The translations under genes and the position numbers were made by a program. The notes beneath the pieces are model-generated. The model was not told the DNA's origin, made no database searches, and saw only the letters and a program-made list of their open reading frames with translations. Positions 30,114-31,531 of a stretch of 64,000 nt of DNA are shown here, one piece after another (the first letter of the stretch is position 1; each line of letters begins with the position of its first letter). Source of the DNA: Klebsiella phage vB_KpnM_Tauntaun_ER47. The DNA is taken from sequence record PP738783.1. The stretch is one strand, 5' to 3'.

Positions 30114-30683
30114 ATGAACTTAAATCACGAATGTTTAAAAGATTTGAGCGATGGTAACGAGATTGGTAACGTTATTTTTCTTGATATCGATGGCGTTCTA
30201 AATAATATGCGGTGCATGAAATTTGGTGAACATATGGACATCGAATGCGCACGACACTTACGCCGGATAGTGAATCACGCTAATTGTGATATCGTCATTT
30301 CCTCTACGTGGAGAATCGGCAACAGTACCCATAATCTACGTGAAATATTTTATCCGTGGGGATTGTATCGGATCATTGGTAAAACTTGCACTAACTTCCC
30401 TCATAGCACTGGAATGCGTGGTGATGAAATCAAGGCATGGATCGATACTTTCGGATGTAAAAACTATCTCATTCTTGATGATGACACCGATATGCTTTCT
30501 TCACAAAAAGATCATTTTATTAACACTGATGGGTTTGTTGGGTTGACCGAAGAACAATCCACTTATGCGATCCGTAACATTTTCGGGGTTACTACTCCGT
30601 TTTGTCCTGAATGCAATGGGTATGGACGTGTTAACGGCTACGACAAATGCGGAACGTGTAACGGTAAAATACTCCGGCTATAA
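30114..30683 (+). CDS. HAD-superfamily phosphatase fused to a C-terminal DnaJ-type CxxCxGxG zinc finger.
   Basis: FLDIDGVLNN (HAD motif I DxDGx), ISSTWR (motif II), K...LILDDD (motifs III/IV). C-terminus CPECNGYGRVNGYDKCGTCNGK. Confidence 0.6.
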   Translation: MNLNHECLKDLSDGNEIGNVIFLDIDGVLNNMRCMKFGEHMDIECARHLRRIVNHANCDIVISSTWRIGNSTHNLREIFYPWGLYRIIGKTCTNFPHSTGMRGDEIKAWIDTFGCKNYLILDDDTDMLSSQKDHFINTDGFVGLTEEQSTYAIRNIFGVTTPFCPECNGYGRVNGYDKCGTCNGKILRL

Positions 30684-30686
30684 ATA
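30679..30686 (+). promoter_or_regulatory. Late promoter TATAAATA upstream of the Ig-like domain gene.
   Basis: Exact octamer 25 nt upstream of ATG 30712. Confidence 0.55.
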
Positions 30687-30711
30687 CCAATAAACATAAG
30701 AGGTTAAATTT

Positions 30712-31245
30712 ATGGCAATTCCTTCTGTAACAATTAGCGCCAACAAAAACGAACTTTTGATTGGCGAAACTTTGACCTTAGAGGTTGAAACTACTGAACT
30801 AGATCCGGGTGATGTGTTTCTGGCCTATCGTTGGCAAAAAGATGGTGTAGATATTCCAGGCGCAACCGCCGATACTTACACAACTACGGTTGACGGTACA
30901 ACTGCTGGTGATTATACCCTGATCTTAAAACACGGTGCTGATGAAGAATCAGCAACAGAAACCACGTCAGATACAATCACCGTGACAACTTATTCTGATG
31001 ATCTCGTTTCTAAATGGACGGTTCACCCGATTCCGTGGCGTGATACCAGCTTTACCCCGATCGGTTATTGGGTACTTGATGAAATTCTGTATCAGAAAGC
31101 ACAGGGTAAAGATTGGAAAACTGATTATGCTGATTACAAGTATAGTGAGGAAGTACAAACGATCCTGAAAGCGTTCATGGAAAACGGTGAATGTGAGATC
31201 CAGGATTCACGAAACGGCTATATTCATAAAATGAGTGAAATCTAA
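30712..31245 (+). CDS. Late protein with an N-terminal Ig-like (Hoc/BIG-type) domain and a C-terminal WTVHPIPWR domain. Candidate virion decoration protein.
   Basis: TLEVETTELDPGDVFLAYRWQKDGVDIPGATADTYTTTVDGTTAGDYTLILKHG fits the I-set Ig pattern also present at the Wac C-terminus. The C-terminal ~80 aa are paralogous to the next ORF. Confidence 0.55.
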   Translation: MAIPSVTISANKNELLIGETLTLEVETTELDPGDVFLAYRWQKDGVDIPGATADTYTTTVDGTTAGDYTLILKHGADEESATETTSDTITVTTYSDDLVSKWTVHPIPWRDTSFTPIGYWVLDEILYQKAQGKDWKTDYADYKYSEEVQTILKAFMENGECEIQDSRNGYIHKMSEI

Positions 31246-31255
31246 GAGGCTTTAA

Positions 31256-31531
31256 ATGGCAACTGAAAAATGGACTACGGTTCATCCTATTCCGTGGAGA
31301 AATACCAGTTTTACATATCTTCCATACTGGCTATACGATATTATCGTTGATGCTTTTGAGAAAGGCGACGACTGGCGCGATTATGCGGAAGAAAAATATA
31401 AATTAGAGTTTGATACTCTGAAAGAGGCGTTTGAAGATTATGGTGATATTCATGTAATCGAATCTCGTAATGGTAAACTGGTTAGTCTGTTGTCATTGAC
31501 TCCTGCTCCTGAACCAGATCCTGACCAATAA
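31256..31531 (+). CDS. Paralogue of the C-terminal domain of the preceding protein (WTxVHPIPWRxTSF...DW.DYA..KY...LK.AFE..G...SRNG).
   Basis: About 45% identity to residues ~98-177 of the 30712 ORF. Followed by a Pro-rich tail. Confidence 0.55.
   Translation: MATEKWTTVHPIPWRNTSFTYLPYWLYDIIVDAFEKGDDWRDYAEEKYKLEFDTLKEAFEDYGDIHVIESRNGKLVSLLSLTPAPEPDPDQ

Follow-up and report, generated by a model that had tools for sequence, protein, structure and literature searches.

The region between positions 30,679 and 31,531 of the DNA examined here raises the question whether a T4-like phage of Klebsiella has lost hoc, the gene of the non-essential head-decoration protein of T4-like phages, and has put another protein in its place. 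The DNA (the window in the following) is a 64,000-nucleotide stretch of Klebsiella phage vB_KpnM_Tauntaun_ER47 (PP738783.1). From its letters alone the initial annotation had concluded that hoc is absent from the place it has in T4 and that a late promoter drives a 177-residue immunoglobulin (Ig)-domain protein, a candidate Hoc replacement, the C-terminal half of which is an uncharacterised domain found a second time as the next free-standing open reading frame. The two open reading frames, ORF1 and ORF2, and their surroundings are laid out as follows.

29047 to 29670, plus strand: inh (PHROG 1051, E = 4e-63)
30679 to 30686, plus strand: candidate T4-type late promoter, TATAAATA, an exact match to the consensus and assigned by that match only
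30698 to 30703, plus strand: predicted Shine-Dalgarno sequence AAGAGG of ORF1, 8 nt before the ATG at 30712, read from the sequence
30712 to 31245, plus strand: ORF1, hoc, short allele, 177 residues, pI 4.2, an Ig-like domain followed by a capsid-binding domain (CBD)
31244 to 31249, plus strand: predicted Shine-Dalgarno sequence AAGAGG of ORF2, 6 nt before the ATG, overlapping the stop codon of ORF1
31256 to 31531, plus strand: ORF2, second Hoc-like gene, 91 residues, pI 4.4, a CBD followed by a short stub
32065 to 32095, no strand assigned: predicted stem-loop terminator with a 13-bp stem, from a terminator scan and annotated at the same place in Klebsiella phage Miro

A single late-promoter consensus precedes the two genes, each of which has a predicted ribosome-binding site of its own. 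The late promoter claimed for the 177-residue protein is borne out as a consensus match: TATAAATA lies 25 nt before the ATG of ORF1 and overlaps the stop codon of the preceding gene, a member of the HAD family. The motif occurs 10 times in the window (4.1 expected; none of 100 shuffles reached 10), nine times on the plus strand. In the annotation of Miro ribosome-binding sites are marked at the places equivalent to both Shine-Dalgarno sequences. Since the gap between ORF1 and ORF2 is only 10 nt long and contains no promoter consensus, the two genes are presumably co-transcribed. The next gene starts 13 nt after the end of ORF2, and the late transcript probably ends at the terminator 3' of a deoxyribonucleotidase-like gene. 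A fusion of the two products by read-through or frameshifting was considered and rejected: the frames differ, a TAA stands between them and ORF2 starts at an ATG with a Shine-Dalgarno sequence of its own.

In T4 inh directly precedes hoc; here it precedes hoc by 1 kb on the same strand, two unrelated genes being inserted between, and a second CBD gene follows directly after hoc. The gene is therefore not missing from its T4 location but stands downstream of inh as in T4, and the consensus promoter together with the synteny gives the late-gene and inh-hoc neighbourhood of the Hoc family.

The window is 99.5% identical over 3.6 kb to Miro, a Slopekvirus, and its hoc region is 100% identical to those of Miro and KP27. 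Judged by this identity, the two ORFs belong to the hoc locus of a Slopekvirus of the Miro/KP27 type. ORF1 is 100% identical to the genes of Miro and KP27 annotated as T4 Hoc-like head decoration. In the GenBank/RefSeq record of Miro both ORFs are annotated as T4 Hoc-like, and in that of KP15 both are annotated as head decoration/Hoc-like, the first with the Hoc note "at the center of each capsomere". Both genes are thus already known, as an annotated hoc and an annotated paralog in a well-sequenced genus. Comparisons outside the genus agree: residues 31-173 of ORF1 align with residues 219-364 of T4 Hoc (5vf3_Z), which comprise the third Ig domain and the C-terminal domain (phmmer, E = 2.8e-18), and ORF1 matches PHROG 1149, "Hoc-like head decoration", with E = 4.5e-46. 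ORF1 is then not a replacement for Hoc but Hoc itself. That ORF1 is Hoc and ORF2 a Hoc-like paralog, and that both bind the capsid, we hold to be highly probable.

The two domains of ORF1, of which the CBD is common to both proteins, and the predicted docking site on the major capsid protein have the following positions.

30712 to 30996, plus strand: Ig-like display domain of Hoc, ORF1 residues 1-95 (AF2 model all-beta, Foldseek, PHROGs 4069 and 2973)
31015 to 31242, plus strand: CBD of Hoc, C-terminal copy, ORF1 residues 102-177 (Foldseek, 8t1x_X)
23375 to 23431, plus strand: predicted Hoc docking loop, gp23 residues 328-346, equivalent to Gly326-Arg344 of T4

The structure of the Hoc CBD and its contacts with the capsid have been published (Fokine et al. 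2023, PMC10385173). In T4 the domain consists of four strands plus helices, touches gp23 at Gly326-Arg344, including Asp336 and Arg344, via His295, Arg300, Trp309/310, Asp313 and the loop Glu355-Gly359, and places this (E/D)SRNG loop at the centre of the capsomer (PMC10385173). The AF2 model of ORF1 (mean pLDDT 91.8) has the same C-terminal domain as T4 Hoc, a four-stranded sheet with helices (known Hoc structures: 8T1X and 5VF3 for T4, 3SHS for RB49). The comparison with the Hoc CBD by Foldseek that had been suggested as a check put the C-domain of T4 Hoc in complex with the gp23* capsomer (8t1x_X) first among the PDB matches (E = 3.8e-6, TMt 0.71, rmsd 2.4 Å, 40% identity). ORF1 shares with T4 Hoc the H, R, W, D and (E/D)SRNG contact motifs: H105, R110, Y119/W120, D123 and D-S-R-N-G 165-169 correspond to H295, R300, W309/310, D313 and E355-G359. 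ORF2 keeps them as H10, R15, Y24/W25, D28 and E-S-R-N-G 69-73. The Tyr293 of T4 is Thr in both proteins. On the side of the capsid the docking loop reads GSKAGAFDFQDPIDVRGAR here and GSKAGVFDFQDPIDIRGAR in T4, with 17 of 19 residues identical and the equivalents of Asp336 and Arg344 kept.

As had been noticed from the sequence, the C-terminal domain of ORF1 recurs in ORF2; the identity, given there as about 45%, is 50% over 70 residues between ORF1 101-169 and ORF2 5-73 (BLASTP, E = 7e-21) and 46% over 82 columns of a MAFFT alignment. Both copies carry the described signature W-T-x-V-H-P-I-P-W-R-(D/N)-T-S-F, D-W-...-D-Y-A and S-R-N-G. The domain is, however, neither uncharacterised nor novel but the Hoc CBD, and it was found in 1369 phage records, the majority of which carry the annotation Hoc. 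The census consisted of an exhaustive search of representative proteins and a tblastn search of phage records; five repeat-rich proteins of 783-1501 residues from the representative search were judged spurious, as they match profile positions 10-41 only, several times each. A loss of hoc and its replacement by an unrelated protein with a new, tandemly duplicated domain of about 80 residues could appeal to Pfam, which lacks a model of the CBD and finds no match to it in ORF1, ORF2 or any relative, and to the place of the gene, which is not directly adjacent to inh or gene 24. Against this stand the number of phage records with the domain, the phmmer match to T4 Hoc, the tree of CBDs described below and the Foldseek match to 8t1x_X, which refute it, and we give it practically no chance. 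The lack of a Pfam match probably misled the first reading. What remains of the proposed function of the repeated domain is an anchor to the capsid; anchoring to the tail finds no support.

As had been recognised, ORF1 has an Ig fold in its N-terminal half. In the AF2 model strands extend over residues 5-94, all-beta and mostly with pLDDT above 90. Foldseek finds Ig domains, among them that of RB49 Hoc (3shs; rmsd 2.0 Å, 24% identity), and the matches to Pfam Ig_3 and Big_2 are weak (E = 0.06). The likeness in type to the Ig domain at the tip of Wac also holds: the terminal Ig domain of the fibritin (9359-11110) matches PHROGs 2973 and 4069, like ORF1, the direct similarity of the two being weak (E = 0.001). 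Like T4 Hoc, ORF1 has an Ig-like display domain N-terminal to the CBD, is acidic (pI 4.2, versus 4.7 in T4), lies after a late promoter consensus downstream of inh and has a conserved docking loop on gp23 as its counterpart. It differs in having one Ig domain in 177 residues, whereas T4 Hoc has three in 376 residues. ORF2 has no Ig domain.

ORF1 represents the one-Ig allele of a one-Ig/three-Ig polymorphism of hoc in the genus. The long allele, found in VAC66, phiEap-3, PMBT1 and others, about 54 of 111 slopekvirus records, encodes 353 residues. Gene and flanks are the same, the CBD is identical and the first Ig domain nearly so (97-99% at the nucleotide level); the difference is a clean in-frame 528-nt indel that places two further Ig domains between ...TVTTY and SDDLVSKW. 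Both of these share 38-46% identity with the Ig tip of the fibritin of the phage studied here. In the databases the long allele often goes under the mistaken name "tail fibers protein" or "whisker protein".

What, then, is ORF2? It consists of the CBD (residues 1-80) and an acidic, proline-rich stub of 11 residues (81-91, TPAPEPDPDQ). It matches PHROG 14282, "Hoc-like head decoration", over profile positions 1-90 of 246 (E = 2.5e-62), further PHROGs 11091 and 1149, and T4 hoc by tblastn (E = 4e-8). Residues 1-81 cover positions 1-81 of the CBD profile; the CBD is thus N-terminal as in the MATEKWTTVHPIPWRNTSF... proteins of the PG7/RB43 type, a form that, together with the presence of two Hoc-like proteins per phage, has been published for Muldoon and Enterobacter phage PG7 (PMC10385173). 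A neighbour-joining tree computed from 144 CBDs places ORF2 among N-terminal-CBD proteins (GuL6, UPEC03, PS49, P0007, P0009, P0011-13) and ORF1 among the C-terminal-CBD Hocs of 353-467 residues, some with identical or near-identical CBDs. ORF2 is 71-75% identical to the N-terminal CBD of CBD-Big_2 proteins of 165-167 and 246 residues from Pseudotevenvirus and an IMG/VR relative, and 53-57% to that of the 511-residue CBD-GDSL proteins of the PG7 type.

In these relatives the CBD is followed by a passenger, a Big_2, Ig_3 or Lipase_GDSL_2 (GDSL esterase) domain. ORF2 shares the N-terminal MATEKWTTVHPIPWRNTSF... CBD with the 511-residue PG7 protein and with the 167-residue CBD-Big_2 proteins of RB43, GuL6 and UPEC03 type, but ends 11 residues after it, inside their inter-domain linker, and therefore displays nothing. 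In Pseudotevenvirus the 167-residue CBD-Big_2 protein occupies the same syntenic slot and is the sole Hoc-like gene there. In the IMG/VR relative L009, with inh adjacent, a 445-residue protein of four Ig domains and a CBD is followed by a 165-residue CBD-Big_2 protein. Other proteins made of a CBD and an acidic tail recur in metagenomes, e.g., P0010 and P0048.

These relationships also bear on the supposed tandem duplication, of which the adjacency of the two copies holds and a recent local event does not. With 50% identity between them and each copy closer to orthologs in other genera, to which ORF2 is 71-75% identical, a recent local duplication was rejected, and the same observation speaks against the new-domain explanation dismissed above. 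A permutation by duplication as the origin of the N-terminal-CBD form was likewise set aside as a misfit to the order in L009, Ig-CBD and then CBD-passenger.

From homology with T4 the following working of the locus can be proposed. After expansion of the capsid the beta-sheet face of the ORF1 CBD and its (E/D)SRNG loop would settle into the central depression of every gp23* hexamer, each hexamer taking up one molecule, with the acidic Ig module projecting outward. ORF2 is a paralog of the N-terminal-CBD lineage, the passenger of which (Big_2/Ig or GDSL esterase) is gone in the slopekviruses, leaving a bald anchor. Both products would be present in the virion and share the single site per hexamer, and ORF2 would determine, as a cap or as the competitor that the first reading had reasonably considered, on how many hexamers an Ig fibre stands. 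ORF2 may bind with lower affinity, as Lys74 stands at the position of the T4 contact Tyr360, where most passenger-bearing orthologs have Tyr, and Ile68 at that of Gln354. In the literature searched we found neither this idea nor virion proteomics or cryo-EM of any slopekvirus. The papers on phiEap-3 and KP15/KP27 hold no proteomic data on Hoc, and the only proteome of a Klebsiella T4-like phage found is that of a Jiaodavirus (PMC13119998), for which reason the presence of both products on the capsid is deduced by homology. That ORF2 competes with the Ig-bearing Hoc we consider to be somewhat short of an even bet.

ORF2 could instead be a functionless remnant, the 5' part of an N-terminal-CBD paralog from which the passenger has been deleted, open merely because the phages compared are such close kin. 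It lacks the passenger carried by its orthologs in Pseudotevenvirus, Karamvirus-like phages and L009, the C-terminal stub is its only variable part, and a contact residue is changed (Tyr360 to Lys). Its intactness is weak evidence of function, since the sequenced members of the genus are still about 98-100% identical in this region; within the genus the substitutions are too few for dN/dS. Yet all 12 slopekvirus loci that were examined directly have an intact ORF2, and each of the 111 records aligns with at least 80% of the 911-nt hoc region (95-100% identity), while in some of the records ORF1 is split or truncated and ORF2 untouched. The changes within the fold of ORF2 are two synonymous ones and the conservative D38E; one of the synonymous changes is a double one that keeps Arg15, the equivalent of T4 Arg300. 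All other amino acid variation is in the tail, where codon 88 has four alleles, codon 89 is changed and a PA indel occurs. Versus passenger-bearing orthologs the pairwise dN/dS is 0.07-0.32, a value in which the branch after the loss of the passenger is not isolated. The strong Shine-Dalgarno sequence at good spacing, the retention of the main capsid-contact motifs and the recurrence of CBD-plus-acidic-tail proteins in metagenomes also argue against a remnant, which we regard as unlikely.

A third copy of the fold is found in the neighbouring gene. Inh is a minor head protein, an inhibitor of the gp21 prohead protease with a reported role inside the prohead. Profile comparison identifies its C-terminal part of about 65 residues (about 29464-29658) as a remote homolog of the Hoc CBD: 19 Inh proteins aligned with 144 CBDs by hhalign give a probability of 97.2% (E = 3.5e-11), and T4 Inh reaches 25.8 bits with the CBD HMM, compared with a maximum of 8.1 for 2000 shuffles. 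The top PDB match of the AF2 model of Inh is again 8t1x_X, weak and not significant alone (E = 0.6). Pairwise BLASTP finds nothing between T4 Inh and T4 Hoc, and Inh of the window is marginal against ORF1 or ORF2; the relationship is visible to profile methods only. As in T4, the gene neighbours hoc. The two proteins differ in their N-terminal parts, helical and disordered in Inh and Ig in Hoc, and in the loop, which is E-T-R-N-S in Inh and E-S-R-N-G in the CBD; Inh also has conserved Cys and Pro residues. The precomputed Pfam assignments of Inh are PF26097 and PF26098. In the literature searched this homology was not found.

Capsids thus make use of the fold in more than one setting, and a prohead-associated, divergent copy at the end of Inh lends something to the suggestion that the ORF2 protein binds elsewhere or before expansion, as a transient assembly or maturation factor acting, e.g., with prohead gp23 or Inh. 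ORF2 also differs from ORF1 at three of the T4 contact positions, 306, 354 and 360. The closest relatives of ORF2 are, however, plainly display proteins (CBD-linker-Big_2 or GDSL esterase), the CBD-Big_2 protein being the only Hoc-like one in the Pseudotevenvirus slot; the (E/D)SRNG loop, which in T4 lies at the capsomer centre, is identical in ORF2; and T4 Hoc is unable to bind unexpanded capsids because of steric clashes (PMC10385173). An assembly factor is in our opinion quite improbable.

Returning to ORF2 as a competitor, one may ask whether the Hoc CBD fold is a general, portable capsid anchor put to three uses in one small T4-like locus. On Hoc it would display Ig fibres. In the paralogs with an N-terminal anchor it would display other modules, the bald anchor of the slopekviruses competing for each hexamer and, together with the one-Ig/three-Ig polymorphism, tuning the amount of Ig on the capsid. 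At the C-terminus of Inh it would tether the inhibitor of the prohead protease to the gp23 capsomers, inh and hoc having arisen by tandem duplication. We offer this wider proposal tentatively and consider it rather doubtful as a whole.

The weight of the main finding is limited, as it rediscovers hoc and an annotated paralog in a well-sequenced phage genus. Near-identical phages of this genus differ by a clean indel of two Ig domains in hoc, the long allele being widely mis-annotated as tail fibre or whisker protein, and an anchor-only Hoc is conserved across about 110 Klebsiella phages that are therapeutic candidates, which may be of interest to specialists in T4 and phage display. The distant relationship of Inh to the Hoc anchor offers a suggestion of how the inhibitor is placed in the head. 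As Hoc is both a major antigen of the phage and a module for adhesion to mucus and cells, a built-in competitor would affect the immunogenicity and the surface properties of these phages and, if true, the use of their capsids as display platforms.

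Two adjacent open reading frames lie downstream of one late-promoter consensus, each with its own ribosome-binding site, that of ORF2 being an AAGAGG that overlaps the stop codon of ORF1.

Signals and genes of the unit
30679-30686, + strand: late-promoter consensus TATAAATA, a sequence match
30698-30703: AAGAGG before ORF1, read from the sequence
30712-31245: ORF1, 177 aa (ATG at 30712, TAA at 31243-31245)
31256-31531: ORF2, 91 aa, starting ten bases past ORF1
32065-32095: bidirectional terminator past the gene downstream of ORF2, common to two facing HAD genes

The window contains 10 copies of TATAAATA (4.1 expected), nine of them on the + strand, and none of 100 shuffles matched this count. 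Both products are acidic (pI 4.2 for ORF1, 4.4 for ORF2). ORF1 101-169 aligned with ORF2 5-73 at 50% identity in BLASTP (E 7e-21) and the two proteins at 46% over 82 columns in MAFFT, the motifs quoted in the initial annotation being present. What that annotation had seen in the sequence (coordinates, promoter, repeated C-terminal domain and motifs) was thus borne out by direct reading, BLASTP and MAFFT, whereas its interpretation was largely overturned.

The repeated domain, at first considered a novel, uncharacterized "WTVHPIPWR domain", is the structurally characterized capsid-binding domain (CBD) of Hoc. In a phmmer search of PDB sequences ORF1 31-173 aligned with T4 Hoc 219-364 (E 2.8e-18), the alignment taking in VHPLPHRSSAYIWCGWWVMDEI...GKDWKTD...ESRNGYI. 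Both ORFs matched PHROG 1149, 14282 and 11091, all "Hoc-like head decoration" (best E 2.5e-62), and tblastn with ORF2 found the domain in 1369 phage records, most of them with a hoc annotation. The AlphaFold2 model of ORF1 (mean pLDDT 91.8) consists of an all-beta Ig domain and, behind it, four strands and helices, as has been published for the C-domain of T4 Hoc. The Foldseek comparison with the Hoc CBD, suggested in the initial annotation, was positive: first in rank among PDB entries was 8t1x_X, [quoted passage not shown] (E 3.8e-6, TMt 0.71, rmsd 2.4 Å, 40% identity), and the Ig matches included RB49 Hoc (3shs). These results show that ORF1 is a Hoc with one Ig domain and ORF2 the Hoc anchor alone. 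A Pfam search with ORF1, ORF2 and relatives found no model for the CBD, which is probably why the domain had looked uncharacterized.

When 1.84 billion representatives were searched exhaustively by HMM, 147 clusters matched the CBD, which is C-terminal in 128 (proteins of 114 to 1473 aa), N-terminal with further sequence behind it in eight, and present as domain-only proteins or fragments in six. Five of the 147, repeat proteins, were judged spurious.

The locus is hoc, already known from a phage genus that is well sequenced. The 3.6 kb around ORF1 and ORF2 are 99.5% identical to Klebsiella phage Miro (Straboviridae, Slopekvirus) and at least 80% covered by 111 phage records; the 911-nt hoc region shares 100% identity with Miro, KP27 and others. 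The Miro record already names ORF1 [quoted passage not shown] and ORF2 "Hoc-like head decoration", and the KP15 record names ORF1 [quoted passage not shown]. The anchor-only paralog, the polymorphism in Ig number and the relationship of Inh to Hoc are modest leads.

In T4, hoc begins 9 nt past the end of inh (prohead-protease inhibitor) on the same strand. It had been thought missing from this location in the window; it still follows inh, with two genes inserted between them, a small hypothetical gene and one that encodes HAD_SAK_2 and a zinc finger. Between gene 24 and inh lie uvsY and uvsW.

Neighbours of the two hoc-like genes
29047-29670: inh (PHROG 1051, E 4e-63)
30114-30683: gene for a phosphatase-like HAD_SAK_2 domain (Pfam E 5.4e-29) and, at the C-terminus, a DnaJ-type zinc finger (CxxCxGxG); at its stop codon the gene overlaps the hoc late promoter
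31545-32063, + strand: 5'-3' deoxyribonucleotidase-like HAD (PHROG 2643), in the same late-promoter-preceded unit as both Hoc genes
32096-32560, - strand: divergent paralog of the preceding gene, facing it across the terminator

The C-terminal ~65 residues of Inh (window about 29464-29658; T4 inh locus L024, 932-1612) are remotely homologous to the Hoc CBD. With hhalign, 19 Inh proteins against 144 CBDs gave a probability of 97.2% (E 3.5e-11, 62 columns). All 19 score 25-34 bits against the CBD HMM, T4 Inh at 25.8 bits, the maximum in 2000 shuffled controls being 8.1. This domain is modelled by AlphaFold2 at a pLDDT of about 90, and the top PDB match of the Inh model, a weak one, is again 8t1x_X (E 0.6, TMt 0.46). 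Precomputed Pfam entries on Inh are PF26097 and PF26098; the searchable literature yielded nothing on Inh together with Hoc. As inh and hoc are neighbours in T4, they may stem from an ancient tandem duplication, and Inh may itself bind capsomers.

Slopekvirus hoc occurs in two alleles, of 177 and 353 aa, separated by a clean indel of 528 nt that keeps the frame. In the long allele, two Ig domains (176 aa in all) are added to ORF1 between …TVTTY and SDDLVSKW; this insert is found at ≥90% identity in about 54 of the 111 slopekvirus records, so that each allele is present in roughly half. The long allele is often mis-annotated as "tail fibers protein", tail protein or "whisker protein".

Ig-bearing sites
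30996-31003: indel junction in ORF1 (long allele at comparison locus L006, 2213-3274)
9359-11110: fibritin (wac), 583 aa, Ig tip at about 10830-11107

The initial annotation had assigned the Wac tip and ORF1 to the same Ig type. This holds in kind, both being Hoc-type, but the direct similarity of the tip to the single Ig of ORF1 is marginal. The tip is more similar to the long-allele Hoc, with 46% identity to Ig3 (E 9e-20) and 38% to Ig2; therefore one kind of module is displayed by both whisker tips and capsid fibres, an indication that domains have been shuffled between wac and hoc.

A neighbour-joining tree of 144 CBDs, calculated without support values, places the CBDs of ORF1 and ORF2 in separate groups that are neighbours inside the family, and the tandem duplication as a local event was not borne out. 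The CBD of ORF1 does not differ from that of the 353-aa protein and lies near those of Hocs 376-467 aa long; ORF2 groups with proteins carrying the CBD at the N-terminus. By this tree the two copies are old paralogs. In Pseudotevenvirus (GuL6, UPEC03) the orthologs of ORF2 are CBD-Big_2 proteins of 167 aa, encoded at the syntenic position, which has no other Hoc-like gene, and in Aeromonas phage PS49 (L004, 3001-4536) and Enterobacter phage SonariX (L005, 3001-4536) they are 511-aa CBD-GDSL esterases. An IMG/VR contig (L009) has a 165-aa CBD-Big_2 gene right after a 445-aa four-Ig Hoc, with inh adjoining. The tandem of Hoc and N-terminal-anchor paralog is therefore older than the slopekviruses, whose paralog, as compared with these orthologs, has lost its passenger (the module behind the CBD): ORF2 ends within the linker (…LSLTPAPEPDPDQ*), and the next gene begins 13 nt on. 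Earlier work has described phages with two Hoc-like proteins each and, in phage PG7, an N-terminal CBD joined to a GDSL domain (Fokine et al., 2023; PMC10385173).

The 511-aa proteins, labelled hypothetical in their records, combine the N-terminal Hoc anchor with a C-terminal GDSL/SGNH hydrolase (Pfam Lipase_GDSL_2, E 7.8e-18) and are putative capsid-displayed esterases. Two metagenomic proteins among the matches of the HMM search, P0010 (121 aa) and P0048 (122 aa), have only a long acidic proline-rich tail after the anchor (…PEPEEPGETDPDPEVP…, …DPGPDPDPDPEP…), in look a longer version of the ORF2 stub. They could represent additional "bald" anchors, or else ORFs truncated where a contig stops.

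ORF2 is intact in all 12 slopekvirus loci examined, with 91 aa in 11 and 93 aa in one (a PA insertion). Codons 1-80, its fold, contain three variable codons, two synonymous (one is AGA/CGT at Arg15, the equivalent of T4 Arg300) and one a conservative D38E; the remaining amino-acid variation is confined to the 11-residue tail. Against passenger-bearing orthologs dN/dS is 0.07-0.32, with dS near saturation. In two records, KLB15 (L016, 163-1220) and CPRSB (L017, 162-617), small indels break up or shorten hoc as annotated, with ORF2 intact; either assembly errors or naturally hoc-null phages could account for this. Together these observations, albeit low-powered, favour a functional gene; that ORF2 is a non-functional remnant is unlikely.

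T4 Hoc contacts the capsid through Tyr293, His295, His299/Arg300, Tyr304, Trp306, Trp309/310, Gln354, the loop Glu355-Gly359 and Tyr360, Asp313 holding Arg357; on the gp23 (major capsid protein) side the contact is the loop Gly326-Arg344, with Asp336 and Arg344 (Fokine et al., 2023; PMC10385173). The residues were mapped from phmmer and MAFFT alignments.

Equivalent residues in T4 Hoc; ORF1; ORF2
His295; H105; H10
Arg300; R110; R15
Tyr304; F114; F19
Trp309/Trp310; Y119/W120; Y24/W25
Asp313; D123; D28
Gln354; Q164; Ile68
Glu355-Gly359; D-S-R-N-G; E-S-R-N-G
Tyr360; Y170; Lys74

The docking loop of the window's gp23 (gene at 22394-23962) is GSKAGAFDFQDPIDVRGAR versus GSKAGVFDFQDPIDIRGAR in T4, with 17 of 19 residues identical and both named residues retained. 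Contact residues and loop are kept, and therefore both interaction partners are conserved; we infer that the products of ORF1 and ORF2 bind the capsid. A different site or role for the ORF2 protein is quite improbable.

In T4 one Hoc CBD docks off-centre on each expanded gp23* hexamer, contacts all six subunits and keeps a second molecule from binding (Fokine et al., 2023; PMC10385173). The ORF1 and ORF2 products would both dock at this site and, the site being shared, ORF2 would cap hexamers and display nothing. Such capping would make Ig fibres sparser on the capsid or adjust their density.
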